Position numbers and translations under genes: made by a program
Shown: piece by piece, positions 23,945 through 36,510 of the stretch
Position numbering within the stretch: the first letter of the stretch is position 1
Layout: each line of letters opens with the position of its first letter
The notes under the pieces: generated by a model
What the model was told of the DNA's origin: nothing
Database searches by the model: none
Seen by the model: the letters and a program-made list of their open reading frames with translations, nothing else
Virus record (IMG/VR): IMGVR_UViG_3300045988_116781
Direction: 5' to 3' (one strand)
Length of the DNA: 58,428 nucleotides
From: a virus

Positions 23945-25051
23945 TTATGACTGCGTTTTGAGGGTGTAGATACCGTTCATCTCCGTAATCACAGGCAAAG
24001 CGAATGCTTCCGCTTTGGTGAACTCTACGCCGTTCGAGCCCTGTGTCTCTCCTGCGCCCCACTGTGACACACGGATACGTCCGTAGTTGGAGTAGGCAAC
24101 GCCCGGCTCCTGTCTCAACTCGCTGTTGGCATAGGCGTTCTTTACGAGACCCAGTTTGCCGTCAGGAATGAACACCATATTCTTGGCGTTCCAAGGGGTA
24201 TACGGAGTACGCTGCGTGCCGTTCTGTACTCTAATCTGTCTACGGATAGGCTCGAATACAGGATAGCTGTTGGTCTGCATGTACTCGTTGATGTCCTTCA
24301 GCTGCACCATACGGGACGATTTGTCAGTTCCCCAAATCATCTGCTTCATCTTCTTCGAGCGGCACATGTAGGAGATGAGAGACGGGGCGCACAGCACTTT
24401 GCCGAAAACGACCTTGTCCTGTGCGGCATCGATAATCGACTGAATGTCCTCGAAGCAGTCCACGGTGTCCTTATTACCCTCTGTCCATTCTTTGGTTGAA
24501 CTTGCGATGTTCTCCGCTGGCTGGTTGAACTTGATAGATCCACGTACACCGCCTTCCGGGTTGGTAGTCTCATCCAGAGTGAAAACACCCTCGTTTGAGA
24601 GTGCGCCAAGGAAAATCATGTCGAGCTTTGCAAGCACGCTGTTTACAGGCGTTTTCACGTTGCCCCACATAAGGTCGATGAGCTGCTGTTTCTTCTGTCT
24701 GTCAGGCAGGGATTTGCTATCAAGGATTTGCAGAACCTTTCTGTAATCCTGAATGGTCATTGGCAGGGTAATGGCATGGTTTACGATTTTCTCTTTGAGA
24801 GTTTCCAGCCCCTCCGTGCCCAAAATAGCCTCCTTTGAACTGTCGCCGATTGTCGGTGCGGCAATACTGATGTTGTACTGTCCGATGATTTCCTCGAAGT
24901 CAAGTCCGATGGTCGGGGTGTCCCAATCAAGGTACTTCTCGAAAATCACTTGGTCGAACAACCTCTTGTTTCGTTCAGAGGCAGCATCGAAGCGAATCTG
25001 TACGACTTTCGTCAGTTCGCCGAAAATTGAACTATACTGAAACTGTGGCAT
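23945..25051 (-). CDS. major capsid protein
   Basis: 368 aa. Called from its size and its position after the scaffold and decoration-like genes. The N-terminus resembles major capsid protein E-like families. Confidence 0.7.
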   Translation of the reverse strand: MPQFQYSSIFGELTKVVQIRFDAASERNKRLFDQVIFEKYLDWDTPTIGLDFEEIIGQYNISIAAPTIGDSSKEAILGTEGLETLKEKIVNHAITLPMTIQDYRKVLQILDSKSLPDRQKKQQLIDLMWGNVKTPVNSVLAKLDMIFLGALSNEGVFTLDETTNPEGGVRGSIKFNQPAENIASSTKEWTEGNKDTVDCFEDIQSIIDAAQDKVVFGKVLCAPSLISYMCRSKKMKQMIWGTDKSSRMVQLKDINEYMQTNSYPVFEPIRRQIRVQNGTQRTPYTPWNAKNMVFIPDGKLGLVKNAYANSELRQEPGVAYSNYGRIRVSQWGAGETQGSNGVEFTKAEAFALPVITEMNGIYTLKTQS

Positions 25052-26323: not shown

Positions 26324-26364
26324 CAAATATAGCCATAAATCCCGAAAACGTACTTATTAAGTAC
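26324..26364 (-). promoter_or_regulatory. candidate promoter plus perfect 17-bp palindrome upstream of the capsid/tail operon
   Basis: CGTACTTATTAAGTACG (26349-26365) is a perfect palindrome. The minus-strand -7 box TATATTTG lies at 26324-26331, about 35 nt upstream of the ATG at 26288. Confidence 0.45.
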
Positions 26365-26506
26365 GTTTTTAATATATTTTTCCAAGAAAATTTTTATCCC
26401 GTCCAACTCACGGGCATACACGCTTTTACGCTGTTTTTCAAGTGATTGCACGAAAATTTCTTTGAAGATTTTTGCTGAAAAGTTTGCCTGTATTAAATAA
26501 AACCCA

Positions 26507-26540
26507 TACATTTGTCCCGTCAGACATACTTAATAAGTAC
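26507..26540 (+). promoter_or_regulatory. candidate promoter of the plus-strand island with a downstream operator-like palindrome
   Basis: The -7 box TACATTTG (26507-26514) is followed 11 nt later by ATACTTAATAAGTAC (26526-26540). The ATG is at 26585 and is preceded by AGGAGG. Confidence 0.4.
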
Positions 26541-29093: not shown

Positions 29094-29465
29094 ATGAATA
29101 AAGAACAAATTAAAAAGGAATATAACGAACTCGTAAATAGCATTGAGGAAATGAGAATGTATGATGGGCGAAATACTGTTGACAGATATGTATGTAAGCG
29201 GTGTGGAGCGCATCTTTACACGACTTATATAGACAAGGGGGTTACGCCGTTCACCATTCAATGCAGGAGATGCTCAGTAGGTACAATGATACATGATAAG
29301 ACGTTCAGGAAAGAAACGATACCGTCATATATAGTGGTTTTGGGATGGTATAGACCTACATTAGAACAAACCTTAAGAATGTCAGAGGGGGCTATTTTTC
29401 ATGTTCTTAAAGGCGGTTTATTTTTGGAAGATGAGCTAAACGTAAATAGCGATGATAACGATTAA
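29094..29465 (+). CDS. hypothetical Cys4 zinc-ribbon protein
   Basis: 123 aa with CKRCGAHL...CRRCSVG. Confidence 0.45.
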   Translation: MNKEQIKKEYNELVNSIEEMRMYDGRNTVDRYVCKRCGAHLYTTYIDKGVTPFTIQCRRCSVGTMIHDKTFRKETIPSYIVVLGWYRPTLEQTLRMSEGAIFHVLKGGLFLEDELNVNSDDND

Positions 29466-29697
29466 CGATATTGTATTCTATGACAAACCGGGAAGTTGCG
29501 GCTCATGTCCGTTCTTTGATAACGGAGGAACCAGTAGCTTCCACGGTTCTGAAATAGGTTACTGCCGTTTGTTTGATGAAATGCACAGGCGATGGATAAA
29601 TCCGCCCCGGAGATGTCAAAAGCTGTTCAACAAGGCGTTCAGGATGCCGGAGGGCAGCAGGTTGGTAATAGTAAGAAAGGAGGAAGAAAATGAGTAA
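29452..29697 (+). CDS. hypothetical Cys-rich small protein
   Basis: 81-aa ORF with CGSCPFF...YCRLF...RRCQ. Confidence 0.4.
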   Translation: MITINDIVFYDKPGSCGSCPFFDNGGTSSFHGSEIGYCRLFDEMHRRWINPPRRCQKLFNKAFRMPEGSRLVIVRKEEENE

Positions 29698-29941
29698 GAT
29701 ATACCATGTCGAGATGAAAGAGCCGATAGACGGAAAGCGGCACTTCTACTTCGGCTCACAGGCCGCTATTTACGAGGTTTTCAGCACCTCACAGGTGGGC
29801 ATAAGCTACAAATCATTGACGAACAAATACGACCTCACAGAGAAGCCGTACGAGAACAGGAAGTGCATAATCCGCATCGGGGAACTTATCAGGAAGCCGA
29901 CCAACAGAGGGCCGAGACCTCAGCAGTTTTTCCACTACTGA
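29690..29941 (+). CDS. hypothetical small protein
   Basis: 83-aa ORF. Confidence 0.4.
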   Translation: MSKIYHVEMKEPIDGKRHFYFGSQAAIYEVFSTSQVGISYKSLTNKYDLTEKPYENRKCIIRIGELIRKPTNRGPRPQQFFHY

Positions 29942-30007
29942 GACCAGTACCTGATAGAAAATCCGTACCTTTGTAGTAACATTCAACGCAATCAAATAGA
30001 TATAACC

Positions 30008-30763
30008 ATGTTAGGAGCAATTATAGGTGATATTGTAGGCTCACGTTTCGAGTTCAACAATGTAAAAAGCAAGAGTTTTAAGCTGTTCACGAAAGAGTGT
30101 TCATTTACAGACGATACAATCTGTACGGTAGCCGTTGCGGATGCTATCTTGTCCGGCAAGAGTTACCGGGACAGCGTACACGAATGGTGCAGCAAATATC
30201 CTAATCCGATGGGTGGGTACGGCGGCTCATTCGCACAATGGGTACATTCTGACGATCCACAACCTTATTACAGTTTCGGCAACGGCTCAGCGATGCGTGT
30301 AAGTCCGATTGGCTTATATTATCATACTGCTGATAGTGTGCTTTTGGAAGCAAAAAAAACTGCTGAAATAACCCATGACCACCCTGAAGGTATCAAGGGG
30401 GCTCAGGTTACCGCCATGTGCGTATTTATGTCTCGTTGGGGATTTACAACTGACGACATAACTAAATATGCTGTATCTGAATATGGAGAAATCCCGAAAT
30501 TCGTGCCGTTCTCCAATCCGTTCAACGAGACCTGCATGAATGCTGTCCCCGTGTCAGTCTCATGTGTTCTTAATAGCACCTGTTTTGAGGAAGCCATAAG
30601 AAACGCAATGATTGTCGGTGGTGACAGCGATACGATAGGTGCGATTACAGGCGGCATTGCGGAAGCGATGTACGGTGTTCCCGTAGACCTGAAAGATATT
30701 GCGATGTCGTATCTTCCTGATGAAATGAAACGAGTTATAAACCGATTTTACAGTGAGCTATGA
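30008..30763 (+). CDS. ADP-ribosylglycohydrolase family protein
   Basis: 251 aa. The N-terminal MLGAIIGDIVGSRFEF...SFTDDT and the C-terminal GGDSDTIGAITGGIAEAMYG are hallmark ARH/DraG-family motifs. Confidence 0.8.
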   Translation: MLGAIIGDIVGSRFEFNNVKSKSFKLFTKECSFTDDTICTVAVADAILSGKSYRDSVHEWCSKYPNPMGGYGGSFAQWVHSDDPQPYYSFGNGSAMRVSPIGLYYHTADSVLLEAKKTAEITHDHPEGIKGAQVTAMCVFMSRWGFTTDDITKYAVSEYGEIPKFVPFSNPFNETCMNAVPVSVSCVLNSTCFEEAIRNAMIVGGDSDTIGAITGGIAEAMYGVPVDLKDIAMSYLPDEMKRVINRFYSEL

Positions 30764-31074
30764 GCAAACGAGATGAGCTATTGACTTCATGTAGATATTA
30801 CAAGGGCGAAAATGAAAACCCTTACAAAGATGGGAACAAAGCCCTATTTTGGGAATATGAGAAGAATTGGCTTGATATGTTCCTTGACGAGAGCCAAACC
30901 CTCATAGAATACAGGGATGAGTATGTAAAAGACGGTCTGCTGGACTTTGAGAGCAAGGATGATGTACCTACAACTCTCAAAGCCATGCTTTACAACCGTT
31001 TTCTCTATTGGTTGGAAGGGTCTCCGACCGAGTTCAAAAAATTCTATAAGGAACAGTATTTGGGTCAAATCTGA
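30760..31074 (+). CDS. hypothetical protein
   Basis: 104-aa ORF. It overlaps the ARH stop by 4 nt and is convergent with the minor head gene, overlapping it by 10 nt. Confidence 0.45.
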   Translation: MSKRDELLTSCRYYKGENENPYKDGNKALFWEYEKNWLDMFLDESQTLIEYRDEYVKDGLLDFESKDDVPTTLKAMLYNRFLYWLEGSPTEFKKFYKEQYLGQI

Positions 31075-33563
31075 CCTACCACTTCAACGTCTATAAAGTA
31101 TCTCCAGCCCGATTTCTCAACCTTTGTGATGCGAAATCGGGTATTTCTTTGTATCAGCATTTCGTTCTCAGAAGAATATGCAGAACGTCCGTCAATATAG
31201 AGCATCTTTGTCCCTTTCGGGCAGTAAATGTTTATTATATTACCACCAAATCCTGTCCCTTTTGCTGCTCCACAACTCATAAATGCAGTATCTGTGATGC
31301 TTTTACCCACAAGGGCGTTCAGGCTGCTTTCGTCCAAAGATGCAAGTTGCAGGAATCCTGCTAATCCCTCATCATCAACTCCACGTTGTAGCCAAATATC
31401 CTTATCGTATGTCGATTTATTGATAAGGTTTGTCAGGCTGTCTATGTCTTTCGGTGCTAACGGGCTTTCATTGTCAAGAGGAACATTGCCTATACCCTTG
31501 AAGTTAGATTTTCCCCATGCACCGTCATATCCTCTCAAAGGCCTGTTTACATATCCGCTTCCTGATGTATATCTCCAAGCCGCATCCTGTTCTTCTTTTG
31601 AAGCAGTATTGTATATCTCATCCGCTTTGTCCTTGAACTTGTTTACAGAATTGCTGGATGTCTTACACCATATAGCCTTGTCCTTTCTGTCTTTGGTATA
31701 AGCACTCTCATCAAAGGTTGTTGATTGACCTTTGCCGAACAGTCTTTTGGCGTTCCGTTGAGCCGCAGCTTTGTCGAGTTGCTCACGCTTCTTTTTGATG
31801 TCGAGTATCGTTTGCTGTGCGGCTGCTTTGTCCTTGCTGGATATAGCATCCTGCAATTTTGCCACAAGGTCAAGATACGGTTGCGACTTCGTTTTGAAGC
31901 TGCTTATGTTCTTGAACTCATTGCTGATGTTCTCCCAATCGAGAGCGTCCGACACTTTTTCGAGCTGCTTCTTGTAGGCATTCTGCGCCACCTCCCATGT
32001 GGAGTATTTCTGATGTTTCTGTACCCAGTCTATCTCGAACGACAGTTTGGACTTCTGTTTCTCCAAAGAGAGACCAGCCCAACTGTCCAGCTTCTTCTGC
32101 ACGGCTTCATTAACAGCTTTTGCCTCCGACATAGAGAACTGACGTGCAACCTGCATCGGATTGTCGAGATATGAGTAGGAGAGGATTTCCTTGCCGACCG
32201 CTTTCAGCCTGCGAGCCTCTTTGAGTATCGTATCGAGATTGCCGCCGTTGAGTGCTTTCTGCAATGCGGATGTATCAACGTCCGAGATACCGCCCATGTA
32301 GGACAGAATGCTCTGGCCGTACTTGCGTGTAGCCCTGCGCTCGTTCCATGCCTTGCGTATGGCCGCTTCCTGTTCGGGTGTCCTGCTGGCGTGCCGGATC
32401 TCTGCGTTGCGTAAAGTCCAACGCCGCTTGATGTCCTGTATCTGTCCGGGCGTTCTTGCCGCATGGCGTTCTTTGGCTGTTTCCAAAGCCGTAGGGGGAT
32501 TTATAATCCTGTCAACGGTCTTCTTATTGTTCTTGATGAAATAAGGCAGCGTACCACGTTCTTTTGCCTTTTCTATGCGTTCTGCGTTGTCTATTGCCCA
32601 TGACTTGAAGTTACCCGGCATGTCGGCAATGACTTTCCCCGAAATGTCGTAATCCTCTCCATTCAGTTTCGCCTGCTGCATGGCCATCATATCCTTTTCT
32701 GATAACAAGACAGGAACTACGTAGCAGAAGCATTGAGGATGCCATCCGTCAAAGACAAAATTTTTAGGATATCTTCCGGCAAGTGTGTCACAGATATCGG
32801 TCACAGGGTGGTTGCGTGACAGGTGTATTTCCTGACCTATCACGAAGTCCATCTGCTGCCAGCGTGTATTGTCAGCCCTGCGGTATGCGATGTTTGTTTC
32901 TGTTCGGGCGATACGCATGGCGTTCTTTGCCGATGAGCGGTAAACGCCCTGTCCCGGGTGATAAGCCTTTGCCGCCTTTGACAGCTTCAGGTTGCCTTTC
33001 TCATCTCGTATTCTGCGGAACAGCTTATCGGGATTATTCAGGTATTGCCGGACGTATCTCGATATTTGGGATGCGCTGTCGCCGTCTCCAATGGCCACGG
33101 TCATGGCAAGTTCCATTTCGGAGCGTAGCTGCTTCACGGGCTGCCAAATACGGTCTGACAGGTTAAGTCCGGCTTCGCTCCGGCTGATGAAAGCCTCCAT
33201 AGCCTCCGTGTTTCGCTCAAACCATCCTGCGAAACGCTTGTCTGAAAGTATCTCCTTACCGAAACAGGATGCGGCAAGCTCATCGCAAGCGGTGTTAGCC
33301 TCGTCCCATTCAAGAGTGATGTCGTTCTTGATTGCGGCATATACTGCGGAATGTAGGTTTCTAAGCCTGTCCGAGACTTTCTTTGCGATTTTCTTCTGTT
33401 CTGAATAGCGAAACACCTCTCCATCGTCCAAATGCGGTACAGAGGACGTTAAGGCAAGAATATCGTTTACCGCTACGGCAAACAATTTCCTTACCTGTTC
33501 CGCATACCTCTCTGTACGGTTGAGAAGTGCGAGATATTCCTTTTTCCCTGTTTCAGTAACCAT
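31065..33563 (-). CDS. minor head protein (SPP1 gp7 / Mu F-like) fused to a C-terminal ADP-ribosyltransferase domain
   Basis: 832 aa. The central IARTETNIAYRRADN...HPQCFCY is typical of gp7/MuF head morphogenesis proteins. The C-terminal roughly 190 aa carry R-S-E ART motifs: YVNRPLR, FMSCG and ENEMLIQ. Confidence 0.75.
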   Translation of the reverse strand: MVTETGKKEYLALLNRTERYAEQVRKLFAVAVNDILALTSSVPHLDDGEVFRYSEQKKIAKKVSDRLRNLHSAVYAAIKNDITLEWDEANTACDELAASCFGKEILSDKRFAGWFERNTEAMEAFISRSEAGLNLSDRIWQPVKQLRSEMELAMTVAIGDGDSASQISRYVRQYLNNPDKLFRRIRDEKGNLKLSKAAKAYHPGQGVYRSSAKNAMRIARTETNIAYRRADNTRWQQMDFVIGQEIHLSRNHPVTDICDTLAGRYPKNFVFDGWHPQCFCYVVPVLLSEKDMMAMQQAKLNGEDYDISGKVIADMPGNFKSWAIDNAERIEKAKERGTLPYFIKNNKKTVDRIINPPTALETAKERHAARTPGQIQDIKRRWTLRNAEIRHASRTPEQEAAIRKAWNERRATRKYGQSILSYMGGISDVDTSALQKALNGGNLDTILKEARRLKAVGKEILSYSYLDNPMQVARQFSMSEAKAVNEAVQKKLDSWAGLSLEKQKSKLSFEIDWVQKHQKYSTWEVAQNAYKKQLEKVSDALDWENISNEFKNISSFKTKSQPYLDLVAKLQDAISSKDKAAAQQTILDIKKKREQLDKAAAQRNAKRLFGKGQSTTFDESAYTKDRKDKAIWCKTSSNSVNKFKDKADEIYNTASKEEQDAAWRYTSGSGYVNRPLRGYDGAWGKSNFKGIGNVPLDNESPLAPKDIDSLTNLINKSTYDKDIWLQRGVDDEGLAGFLQLASLDESSLNALVGKSITDTAFMSCGAAKGTGFGGNIINIYCPKGTKMLYIDGRSAYSSENEMLIQRNTRFRITKVEKSGWRYFIDVEVVGQI

Positions 33564-33570
33564 AAATCAG

Positions 33571-35016
33571 TTATTCAGCCGTTGGTAATACTTCTTCCTC
33601 CGTTCTGTTCCCGAATAAATCTGCATTCGCTTTCTGCCGTTCCTCTTTCTCCTTTTCAATCCGCTGCAACTCCTTTGCATGGTCTTTGACAAGCGGATTG
33701 AGTTCAACTGCGCCCTCTTGGCTGATAAGCCCAGCATCGTACATCTTGACGATATTGGATATGCATTCCGTGATGTCCTCCCCGAACGGCTCTTGAAACT
33801 CGTGCCCGATCTGCAGTTTGGAGCATTCCTCTTTCAGGGAAATGTCAAGCACGTTTCCGATAATGGCGGTTATCAGACTGGCCGTCCTGTCAAGCAGTTC
33901 ATCGTGTATCTCCTTATGCTTCGATGCCTTGATGTCTGCAAGCAGCATGACCGTACGCAACGCCTTTGCCGAAAGCTGCGAGATGCTTTTCATCGTGTCG
34001 AGACTTATTTTCGGCGTGAATGTCTTGGAATAGATTTGGTCTTGCAGCCATTCGATTTCGTCTTTCTTCGATTGCGGCGCATTATCCCATGTGAGGTACT
34101 TTGCAGCCTTATCCACTCCGTCCTGTCCTTTCGTGATGAGCAGTTTGTTGGCATCTTTCTTTTCAGGCAGATTTTTTACCACTTCTGCATCCATGATGGC
34201 GATAGGGTCGGCGAAATAGTCGTTTGTGTCCGCAGAGCGGCTGGCGATGTACTCCTCACGGTGTATCAGAGGCTCAACGCCTGCCCATTCCTTTTTCTGC
34301 TGGAACAGGATGATGGGGATTTTCCCCACGAGGTTTTCTTCTTCCTCCACCTCCCAGCCGAGACCGCCACGGACACACTTGTAGATGGTGTTCGGGGTAT
34401 AGATGTCGAAATGATACTCCACCTTGTCGTTTGCCTTGACGTAGTATCCCCAGCCTATGGAAATGATGTTCTCGAACTGGTCCCAGCGCACATAGATGTC
34501 ATCTCCCTTGCTCTTTGCGAGAACACGTATCTGTACGTCAGGGTTGCCGTCATTATCCCTGAATACACGGAACAGCATTGCACTCTCCGTTTCCGCTCCG
34601 GCTATGCGCTTGCATTGACGTATCTTGCTGTTGAAATGTGTATTCTTGATAACGTCCATGTACTTGTTGAAAGCCCTGTCCGTATTCTCTGATAGTTGAG
34701 ACCATTTCACGGGACGACCATACAGGAACACGAGCGAGATTTCATTGATATACACAGGGTACGGTACAGGCAGTTTCCATACAGGCTCTTTCCGTAGGAA
34801 CTTGCCGTTCTTGTCCGTGATGATTTTGTCCTCACGCTTCATTATCTGATGCGAGAACGTGTCATAGTCCTTGATAGCGTCAAGGATAAGCTCGCTCCTG
34901 TTGCTCATCGAGTCTATGACCGCACCGATGTCTTTGGCTTGCAACAGCTTCTCGAACTCCTGATTACGTCCCACGAGCTGATTGACGTAATTCCGAAATA
35001 CATTAAAGTAATTCAT
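33571..35016 (-). CDS. portal protein
   Basis: 481 aa. It lies between TerL and the gp7-like minor head protein. Confidence 0.7.
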   Translation of the reverse strand: MNYFNVFRNYVNQLVGRNQEFEKLLQAKDIGAVIDSMSNRSELILDAIKDYDTFSHQIMKREDKIITDKNGKFLRKEPVWKLPVPYPVYINEISLVFLYGRPVKWSQLSENTDRAFNKYMDVIKNTHFNSKIRQCKRIAGAETESAMLFRVFRDNDGNPDVQIRVLAKSKGDDIYVRWDQFENIISIGWGYYVKANDKVEYHFDIYTPNTIYKCVRGGLGWEVEEEENLVGKIPIILFQQKKEWAGVEPLIHREEYIASRSADTNDYFADPIAIMDAEVVKNLPEKKDANKLLITKGQDGVDKAAKYLTWDNAPQSKKDEIEWLQDQIYSKTFTPKISLDTMKSISQLSAKALRTVMLLADIKASKHKEIHDELLDRTASLITAIIGNVLDISLKEECSKLQIGHEFQEPFGEDITECISNIVKMYDAGLISQEGAVELNPLVKDHAKELQRIEKEKEERQKANADLFGNRTEEEVLPTAE

Positions 35017-35037: not shown

Positions 35038-36510
35038 TTACAATCCAAATGTACCTTTGCCGAGTGCGTCATAGTCTATGTCGTCATCATCGTTCAAAAG
35101 GTCGTTTATAGCATATCCGAGTATATCTACATATTCGTCATGGGGCTGGGTCGGGAAACCGCATACCTCTTTCAGGAACTCCTCATTCCAGCTGCCCTCC
35201 ACGATGTACACCCGGCCGCACTCTATGCGAGGGGAAACCACACGCAGCCTGACCTCCTTACTGTCGTCAGGTGTGGGCGTTTCCTTGACATTGAGCGTGG
35301 ATATTTCCTTTAGCATCTGAACAACGCTGATACCGTTCGCCTTTGGCTCGATATGCAGCTTGCTCTCTCCTGTTGCCCCGTGCGATGCCATATACTCCGG
35401 AAGAAAGCGCAACAGATCCGGCATCTCTTTCCACACTTTTTGCGCATCCACGAGATACACGCTGTTCCTTATCCTGCAAGCAGCCAAAATGCCGCTCGGG
35501 TCGTTGTCTGTCCTCTGCTTCTTGTTGTATGCGGTATCGAGATAGAAGTGTATCGTTTCCCGAAACCGCAAAGCCATGAAGTCAGAGTACGATATCCTGC
35601 GAAACCACTCATCCTTGACAATGTTACCGCCGTCCACTATCGGGGACTGTTCGTATTGTCCTGCATAGCCGAGACTGCCGAGGTCTATTTTCGCTTCTTC
35701 CAGGACAGACCTGTTGAGCCGGACAGGGTCGAGAAGCCCGTCCACGTATTTGTCCCGAAGTTCAACGGGCTTTACCATGTCCGACAGTTCGGCTGGCAGA
35801 CACACGTGCCGTATCTTTTCGCCCTTGCGCTTCAACAGGTAGCCCGTAACGTCTTCCTCATGCAGACGCTGCATGACGGTAATCATCGGGGTGTTCTCCT
35901 TGTTTACCTTTCGTGAGGACAGCGTTTTCACATGCTCGTTTGCCTGTAATCTTAACGGCTCGCTGTCCGCCTGTTTCGGGTTCTGCGGGTCATCGTTGAT
36001 TATCACGTGGGCATGGAAGCCTGTAATGGTCGCACCTGTTGATGTGGCGTAACGGAAGCCTCCCTGCGTGTTCTCGTAGTGCTGCTTTCCCTGTTTATCA
36101 CGTCTCAATACGATTTCAGGAAACAGTTTGCGGAACTTGTCGCTCTGAATGATGTCCTTTGATTTCGTTGCGTGCTCTATTGACAGACCACCCGAATACG
36201 AGTTTGTAATAGCCCTCAATGTGGGGTCATTAATCCATAACCATACCGGGAACATGATTGTGACGATTGTCGATTTTGTTGTTCCCGGAGGAATATTGAT
36301 GATAAGGTCATAAGGTTTCGGCTCTCGGTTTATGATTGATACCGAGAGCTTCTGCAACTCATCGCACAGATAGGGTATGTGCCAGTTGTAAATGGGCTTT
36401 TCCGATATGATAACGTCCCAAAACATCTTCACGAAGTAGAAAAAACTCTTCCGGCACTCATCTGCTACGACTTGTATTCCCAACGCCGTATAATCAATGT
36501 TCCGTATCAT
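35038..36510 (-). CDS. terL: terminase large subunit
   Basis: 490 aa with Walker A-like PPGTTKST and Walker B-like VIINDDP. The C-terminal nuclease region is in a typical position. Confidence 0.85.
   Translation of the reverse strand: MIRNIDYTALGIQVVADECRKSFFYFVKMFWDVIISEKPIYNWHIPYLCDELQKLSVSIINREPKPYDLIINIPPGTTKSTIVTIMFPVWLWINDPTLRAITNSYSGGLSIEHATKSKDIIQSDKFRKLFPEIVLRRDKQGKQHYENTQGGFRYATSTGATITGFHAHVIINDDPQNPKQADSEPLRLQANEHVKTLSSRKVNKENTPMITVMQRLHEEDVTGYLLKRKGEKIRHVCLPAELSDMVKPVELRDKYVDGLLDPVRLNRSVLEEAKIDLGSLGYAGQYEQSPIVDGGNIVKDEWFRRISYSDFMALRFRETIHFYLDTAYNKKQRTDNDPSGILAACRIRNSVYLVDAQKVWKEMPDLLRFLPEYMASHGATGESKLHIEPKANGISVVQMLKEISTLNVKETPTPDDSKEVRLRVVSPRIECGRVYIVEGSWNEEFLKEVCGFPTQPHDEYVDILGYAINDLLNDDDDIDYDALGKGTFGL

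Follow-up and report, generated by a model that had tools for sequence, protein, structure and literature searches.

The DNA analysed here, a 58,428-nucleotide (nt) virus record (IMGVR_UViG_3300045988_116781) that we refer to as the window, contains at positions 30008 to 33563 a gene for a phage head protein that ends in an ADP-ribosyltransferase (ART) domain and, on the opposite strand, a gene for an ADP-ribosylglycohydrolase (ARH). The question raised by this locus is whether the two enzymes are a toxin and its antidote, or whether the ARH is directed against a host defence that uses ADP-ribosylation. As described below, the locus very probably encodes a MuF polymorphic toxin of the Bxa type that is accompanied by two immunity genes, the three working as toxin, eraser and blocker. 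This interpretation is based on homology, intact catalytic residues, the fold, a conserved gene order and strict co-occurrence, and by analogy the divergent copy in the window would have the same activities as the Bxa, BAH and Bsi proteins of Bacteroides stercoris.

MuF toxins were described as a polymorphic toxin family by Jamet et al. 2017 (PMC5576092), and their packaging and injection have been proposed, not demonstrated (PMC5576092, PMC10083569). Bxa is the MuF-fused ART of a B. stercoris prophage, and Brown et al. 2021, as cited in PMC11699363 and PMC10083569, described it as modifying epithelial-cell non-muscle myosin II and as an aid to colonisation. Alexei et al. 2024 (PMC11699363) reported that Bxa kills Escherichia coli via promiscuous arginine ADP-ribosylation, that BAH reverses this modification and rescues E. 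coli alone in a manner requiring the catalytic Glu15, and that Bsi binds Bxa and neutralises it partially. In that work the small open reading frame (ORF) upstream, RS09440, gave no protection, BAH did not co-purify with Bxa, and genes of the BAH-like and Bsi-like kinds were stated to accompany bxa orthologues across gut Bacteroidales (PMC11699363). The Benler 2021 paper on related phages makes no mention of an ART or an ARH. The original prediction for this locus, which had suggested a writer/eraser (toxin/antidote) pair, matches the experimentally characterised Bxa/BAH pair, which is already published (PMC11699363). The system is already known, and that earlier interpretation is partly supported, being right in its main line but incomplete.

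The MuF-ART gene

The gene for the head protein (31065..33563, minus strand, 832 aa) and that for the ARH (30008..30763, plus strand, 251 aa) are present at the coordinates originally given for them. The 832-aa protein, a MuF-ART polymorphic toxin of the Bxa family, matched PHROG 16625 'Bxa ADP-ribosyl transferase' in three stretches (E 9.2e-202), the best of which covers residues 387-831, and is 40% identical over 99% of its length to the 869-aa protein of Bacteroides phage Versailles. In the latter protein the second Glu of the ExE motif is found at position 820, as is E820 of Bxa. Furthermore, the gene order in Versailles (portal, 869-aa MuF-ART, convergent 107-aa ORF and 257-aa ARH) is the same as in the window.

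The N-terminal MuF-like head-protein domain (residues 1-360; 32484..33563, minus strand) was assigned from PHROG matches, namely phrog_35295 (E 8e-106), phrog_7625 (E 7e-53) and phrog_115 'minor head protein' (E 7e-32); the head-morphogenesis and minor-head PHROGs 7625, 115 and 1657 match this part with E values from 7e-53 to 1e-27. It is followed by a middle domain and variable linker (residues 361-620; 31704..32483, minus strand) that are kept among Bxa-like proteins (alignment A1), with the linker at about residues 590-620 being variable in length and of low predicted local distance difference test (pLDDT) score at the start of the structural model. A profile search of the full-length family against the PDB returned ART matches only, and no solved MuF domain.

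The ART domain occupies the last ~210 residues (31068..31703, minus strand) and matched the Pfam family ADPrib_exo_Tox (PF03496) over residues 645-817 with an E value of 6.4e-15 and 55.4 bits, compared to a cut-off of 23.4. The motifs quoted in the original prediction were located at residues 671-677 (YVNRPLR), 761-765 (FMSCG) and 799-805 (ENEMLIQ). The residues R727 (in IWLQRG; codon at 31383-31385), S763 (in FMSCG; 31275-31277), E799 (31167-31169) and E801 (31161-31163), all on the minus strand and the last two forming the ENE motif, are invariant in an alignment of 17 ART sequences (A2), and R677 (in NRPLRG), on the preceding helix, is conserved in at least 90% of them. We conclude from these alignments that R727, on strand beta-1, most likely supplies the R of the R-S-E triad, because it is invariant among the 17 sequences and aligns with the LYRG of Lmo0066 of Listeria monocytogenes. 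The assignment of an R-S-E type ART stands on the Pfam match, the alignment and the fold, but the Arg that had been quoted for it, R677, probably gives way to R727.

The original prediction had also suggested that a predicted structure of the domain be compared with known ARTs. An AlphaFold2 model of residues 600-832 had a mean pLDDT of 85 and a predicted template-modelling score (pTM) of 0.84, and a Foldseek search with this model matched C3 exoenzymes (E ~1e-13). The best superposition was on chain B of 8za7, with a target-normalised TM-score of 0.84 and a root-mean-square deviation of 3.3 (Foldseek values), and the structural neighbours among viral models were VIP2-like proteins, MuF/minor-capsid ART fusions and one Alt-like RNA polymerase ADP-ribosylase. 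The domain has the C3/VIP2 fold with an intact R-S-ExE set. An ExE motif is the usual form in arginine-directed ARTs, and its presence fits, by analogy, the arginine specificity measured for Bxa.

Some relatives of the toxin (P0053 and P0117 in alignment A1, and also P0020, P0033 and P0061) lack one or both of the conserved arginines, reading EPLF.. and WMQHGE for PLRG and WLQRG, with the S and ExE motifs kept; as judged by these motifs, they may be altered-chemistry or inactive variants. In one metagenome-assembled genome (L016:4971-7547) a 422-aa MuF ORF and a separate 400-aa ORF with the ART stand in place of a single MuF-ART gene, owing to a frameshift or an assembly error.

The ADP-ribosylglycohydrolase and its linkage to ART-bearing genes

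The 251-aa ARH, a BAH-like candidate for enzymatic immunity, matched the Pfam family ADP_ribosyl_GH (PF03747) with an E value of 3.6e-34 and 119 bits, compared to a cut-off of 26.2. Its E15, FTDDT at residues 33-37 (T34-D35-D36) and GGDSDT at residues 204-209 (D206/D208/T209) coincide in an alignment with the catalytic Glu and the metal-binding residues of ARH3, which was the nearest of its sequence relatives (E 4.6e-13), followed by Lmo0067 (E 2.4e-8), DraG (E 6e-6) and, weakest, ARH1 (E 7e-4); Tri1 was not among the sequence matches. The protein is 54-55% identical to the 257-aa ARH of Versailles.

The relationship between the ARH and the ART domain was evaluated in 95 loci around relatives of the MuF gene, of which 65 remained once redundancy was removed and a minimum of 2.5 kb of downstream sequence was required. 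It was found that an ARH gene is located behind 38 of the 41 MuF genes that end in an ART, compared to 0 of the 24 that do not (Fisher p 7e-15, a value not corrected for relatedness, the loci not being phylogenetically independent). Eight ARH-linked C-termini that the ART profile had missed were examined individually; seven are matched by Pfam models of ARTs, and in the remaining one just the S-T-T and ExE motifs are recognisable. The tight link of the ARH to ART-bearing MuF genes speaks for a role alongside the phage's own ART and not against host defence, and the original suggestion that it might counter a host ADP-ribosylating defence is disfavoured.

The ART-bearing loci L022/L023, L034 and L057 have no ARH within ~4.6-5 kb downstream, and L022 and L023 carry two tandem Bsi-like genes instead. 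The arrangement suggests that the eraser is dispensable where blockers suffice.

Upstream of the ARH gene is an 83-aa ORF (29690..29941, plus strand; phrog_10608, E 5.6e-26) in the position of BACSTE_RS09440. Its homologues are also found beside 12 of the 24 MuF genes without an ART, and it is therefore not ART-specific. This distribution fits the published failure of RS09440 to protect, if the two ORFs, matched by position, correspond.

The small convergent gene and its family

The roughly 300 nt that had been described as lying between the toxin and ARH genes are not a gap, but are filled by an overlooked third component, a 104-aa ORF (30760..31074, plus strand). The ARH stop codon overlaps the start of this ORF (ATGA), and the final 10 nt of the ORF and of the 832-aa gene, on opposite strands, overlap one another. 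The encoded protein is Bsi-like (phrog_19606, E 2.6e-18) and a candidate for structural immunity. Its gene sits where Versailles has the 107-aa ORF, and the two proteins share 38-41% identity (family hidden Markov model E 6e-42). No Pfam match was obtained even at E 10, and the AlphaFold2 model, an all-helical bundle with a pLDDT of 95, had no match in a fold search of the PDB (best E 6.3). In the Versailles protein a K-Y-A-E segment corresponds to K89/Y90/E92 of Bsi with an offset of three residues, and alignment through its K86-Y87-A88-E89 places the segment at Y83-W84-L85-E86 in the window. This K-Y-x-E segment is among the most variable stretches of the family.

In contrast to this variable segment, residues 4-44 of the small protein (30769..30891, plus strand; CRYYKGE..NP..FW..E..W in alignment A5) form a constant N-terminal module. 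Small ORFs that converge on MuF toxin genes share it irrespective of the toxin domain, across several ART subtypes and also with a non-ART domain, and it was seen in loci L018, L025, L029, L067, L061, L022 and L064. Within the collected loci a profile of the module matched almost only ORFs located -25 to +59 nt from the stop codon of a long MuF gene, and none behind short, toxin-less MuF genes, one stray case excepted. Searched against 1.84 billion representative sequences, the same profile matched 703 proteins with E<=1e-3, of which 108 had E<=1e-10. Among the best 150 of these 703, 99 contain one N-terminal module (in proteins of ~100 aa), 45 contain two, five contain three and one contains four. 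The N-modules fall into one BLAST cluster, whereas 181 units sort into 28 clusters by their C-terminal parts, and the largest of these clusters has 124 units and includes the type found in the window. Of 44 multi-unit proteins, ten repeat one type and the others are of mixed types. None of eight representatives of the family had a Pfam match, the 2024 Bxa paper (PMC11699363) makes no mention of such a motif, and Bsi is the sole member with a tested function (PMC11699363).

As a tentative reading, somewhat short of an even chance in our estimation, we propose that the 104-aa protein belongs to a large, modular, antidote-like family of Bacteroidales MuF-toxin phages, one that Pfam does not cover, in which a constant N-module of ~40 residues is joined to interchangeable C-terminal parts that accompany different toxin domains, whether ART or non-ART. 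Tandem mixed fusions would provide immunity to several toxins, the toxin and antidote would be exchanged as one cassette, the ARH would be a generic back-up, and the N-module might dock on the conserved MuF part. Because the two genes converge, the sequences for the toxin domain and for the variable end of the antidote adjoin each other and could be exchanged as a unit. If this proposal is true, the sequence motif would be a handle for finding the immunity genes of uncharacterised MuF toxins.

In four of the loci (L018:4333-4932, L025, L029 and L067) the MuF protein ends in a different domain of ~200 aa, designated A4 (FKNQFEVGTGGG ... SYLELQYHG.LT.DC.ES), and the genes encoding it are followed by a small ORF with the N-module. 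The A4 domain had no Pfam, PHROG or PDB match, an hhalign probability of 0.4% against the ART profile, and no ARH gene nearby. As judged by its sequence, A4 bears no relation to the ART fold and is a candidate for a new toxin domain.

Exchange of the ART domain between related phages

A comparison of the window with the sister phage L087 gave identities of 92% for the terminase, 87% for the portal protein, 81-91% for MuF residues 1-600, 76% for the ARH and 81% for the 83-aa ORF, whereas the ART domains were just 42% identical and the small proteins 29%. At the DNA level, the identity is ~0.8-0.9 down to ~31900, drops to 0.33-0.55 from ~31850 to 30850, and recovers within the ARH gene. In this phage the ART domain and the greater part of the small gene differ jointly, between flanks that have stayed similar. 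Conversely, L089 has a very different backbone (portal protein 24% identical), yet its ART domain is the most similar (74%). Over 22 loci, ART similarity was uncorrelated with that of the MuF part (rho 0.06) or that of the ARH (rho 0.03). Because of this absence of correlation and the contrast between L087 and L089, the ART domain is, on the evidence of these comparisons, a part that moves independently of the phage backbone. The pattern of MuF polymorphic toxins is present, with a kept N-terminal part, swappable C-terminal toxin domains (including non-ART domains), and a small ORF downstream in most loci.

Genomic context and putative promoters

The window is a temperate, siphovirus-like prophage with an integrase gene (1338-2483), tail and tape-measure genes, and a major head gene (23945-25051). 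The packaging block is on the minus strand and consists, with near-zero spacing, of the genes for the large terminase (35038..36510; phrog_38, E 3.3e-90), the portal protein (33571..35016; PF05133, E 2.9e-32) and the 832-aa protein, the last of which begins 7 nt after the portal gene. On the plus strand, small genes make up a 4.5-kb island that points at the 832-aa gene, and the last three of them are the 83-aa ORF, the ARH gene and the 104-aa ORF. A copy of the MuF-ART protein that is 99% identical is present in Mediterranea massiliensis strain 118_WCHN, and the nearest MuF-ART cluster (98% identical) contains 414 member sequences, with close relatives on many contigs. A megablast search of a phage collection with the locus gave no match. 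The locus is thus carried by a gut Bacteroidales prophage.

A Bacteroides-type -7 motif, TACCTTTG (pattern TAnnTTTG; 29966..29973, plus strand), is located 34 nt upstream of the ARH start, and the ARH and small genes probably have their own promoter at 29966. This call is made from position, because the TAnnTTTG pattern is not enriched across the window (33 found, compared to 33 expected). A similar motif precedes the island at 26507 (plus strand), with a TTTG 20 nt further up from TACATTTG, and another is upstream of the head-gene block on the other strand (26331-26324). A scan for sigma-70 promoters and terminators found nothing above chance.

A divergent pair of Bacteroides-type promoter motifs (26483-26514, plus strand, and 26324-26331, minus strand) is found in the 515 nt that separate the head-gene block from the plus-strand island. 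Where the 832-aa and 104-aa genes converge there is an inverted repeat (GGTCA AATC TGACC, 31063-31076), on the two strands of which the genes end; through this shared repeat both proteins terminate in Gly-Gln-Ile before the stop codon. Within the island, a Cys-rich 123-aa ORF (29094-29465) with weak zinc-ribbon matches is found in the window and in L091 and is absent from the sister phages L087 and L090, the difference being a clean indel of ~370 nt.

Discussion

The results can be combined in the following model. A late operon (terminase, portal, MuF-ART) would make a minor head protein ending in an R-S-ExE ART of ~210 residues, and the ART would use NAD+ to ADP-ribosylate arginines on many proteins and so kill the producing cell. 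The ARH and the translationally coupled 104-aa protein would be made from the opposite strand, probably from their own promoter; the ARH would hydrolyse the Arg-ADP-ribose marks, and the 104-aa protein would bind the ART domain and block its active site. The toxin may be packaged into capsids, and it would leave the cell at lysis, inside virions or free.

Several observations weigh against a Bxa-type toxin with two immunity genes. The link to Bxa was made through the PHROG name and through numbering (869 aa, E820 and E15 of BAH), and the B. stercoris locus was absent from the matches of the genome-collection scans. The Pfam model Phage_Mu_F (PF04233) gave an E value of 0.22 and 12.7 bits with the 832-aa protein, compared to a cut-off of 29.6 that was passed by 0 of 16 homologues. 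The ART subtype of the window shares only 36-43% identity with the Bxa-type domain of Versailles and has no counterpart of the ~22-residue insertion that precedes the ExE motif there; the targets may therefore differ. Of the two residues that Bsi needs for neutralising Bxa, the counterpart of E92 is kept (E86) and that of K89 is Tyr83, in a mapping that assumes the three-residue offset. Finally, ART and small-protein similarity co-varied weakly over the 22 loci (Mantel rho 0.20, p ~0.05; partial 0.19, p ~0.056), and an earlier comparison based on multiple-sequence alignments had given a rho near 0. Tight family-wide co-evolution of the ART and the small protein was dropped, the Mantel rho of 0.20 being too weak, and the local difference in the cassette between sister phages was kept.

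The alternative that we take most seriously differs from the toxin-immunity interpretation only in biological role and is compatible with it. The ART could be an injected host-takeover enzyme resembling T4 Alt that modifies the newly infected cell, for example in tuning the lysis-lysogeny decision or in host shut-down, with the ARH and the small protein later resetting it in a timed writer/eraser circuit. The fusion of the ART to a MuF-like head protein, encoded immediately after the portal, would suit such a role, as would the precedent of SPP1 gp7, a low-copy, portal-bound capsid protein, the hypothesis of MuF toxin injection (PMC5576092, PMC10083569, PMC9503650), and the many MuF/minor-capsid ART fusions and the Alt-like RNA polymerase ADP-ribosylase among the viral structural neighbours. 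However, the literature contains as yet no demonstration of a MuF toxin in virions or of its injection, and Bxa modifies many proteins promiscuously, kills E. coli, and reportedly acts on epithelial cells, outside the bacterium. We therefore regard an injected enzyme of this kind as a possible but rather unlikely explanation.

Much less probable is that the ARH is chiefly an anti-defence factor that erases the marks of host ART immunity and is next to a phage ART by coincidence. ARH and macrodomain erasers are plausible tools of counter-defence, and the gene is in a separately oriented island of small genes, but coincidence does not account for its presence beside ART-bearing genes and its absence from ART-less ones in otherwise related head modules, for the ART-like appearance of all eight examined C-termini that the profile had missed, or for the rescue of E. 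coli from Bxa by BAH alone, for which the catalytic Glu is needed. Least probable of all, and hardly to be expected, is that the ART or the antidotes are decayed, inactive remnants. Some family members (P0053, P0117) lack both conserved arginines and three ART loci lack the ARH; in the window, however, the ORFs are full length as predicted from the DNA and the catalytic and metal-binding residues are all intact, and the size of the nearest cluster and the occurrence of relatives on many contigs also argue against decay.

If the toxin-immunity interpretation is right, the locus is one more divergent copy of a system already characterised, toxin and antidotes alike, in 2024; alone it adds little. 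It does extend Bxa-type toxins to Mediterranea prophages. It also presents an ART subtype with a 26-residue loop after the NRPLRG helix, unlike the Versailles subtype, and with a very different loop before the ExE motif. The region before ExE sets target choice in C3-like ARTs, and the latter difference may bear on the choice of target. The ART subtypes and small partners are shuffled between close phages, and caution is needed when extending the effect of Bxa on epithelium to all "Bxa homologues".

Comparison with known systems

T4 Alt resembles the window toxin in having an ART fold of the Alt/VIP2 type and in its association with the phage head. Unlike the window toxin, it is not MuF-fused and has no adjoining eraser or blocker, and its packaging has been demonstrated, whereas here it is only assumed.

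In Tri1 one protein both erases and occludes, whereas in the window these roles would be divided between two genes. Tre1 and Tri1 of Serratia proteamaculans (PDB 6DRE/6DRH) are an arginine-directed antibacterial ART and an immunity protein of the ARH family, and Tre1 matched the window ART with an E value of 5.6e-5; unlike the window toxin, Tre1 is delivered by type VI secretion through a PAAR domain. Lmo0066 and Lmo0067 of L. monocytogenes (PDB 8za7), an ART effector with its ARH immunity protein, gave the best match to a solved ART (E 2.3e-11), together with the related ARH partner. In contrast to the window toxin, Lmo0066 is not MuF-fused and is not on a phage. For this pair the ARH was crystallised in complex with the ART, whereas BAH failed to co-purify with Bxa.

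The same logic of a MuF-fused toxin, an enzyme that reverses the product and a small structural immunity protein is found in Apk2, Aph1 and Tis1 of Bacteroides caccae and others (PMC10083569). Unlike the window toxin, Apk2 is a (p)ppApp synthetase and its eraser is an HD-type hydrolase, and the proteins are unrelated outside the MuF part.

The locus is similar to that of Bxa, BAH and Bsi in the prophage of B. stercoris ATCC 43185, which likewise encodes a MuF-like head protein that ends in an R-S-ExE ART, an adjoining ARH with E15, a protein of ~100 aa between the ARH and toxin genes, and a further small ORF upstream of the ARH. The window copy differs from it in that the toxin has 832 aa instead of 869, the ART is of a different subtype, and the equivalent of Bsi K89 is a Tyr.

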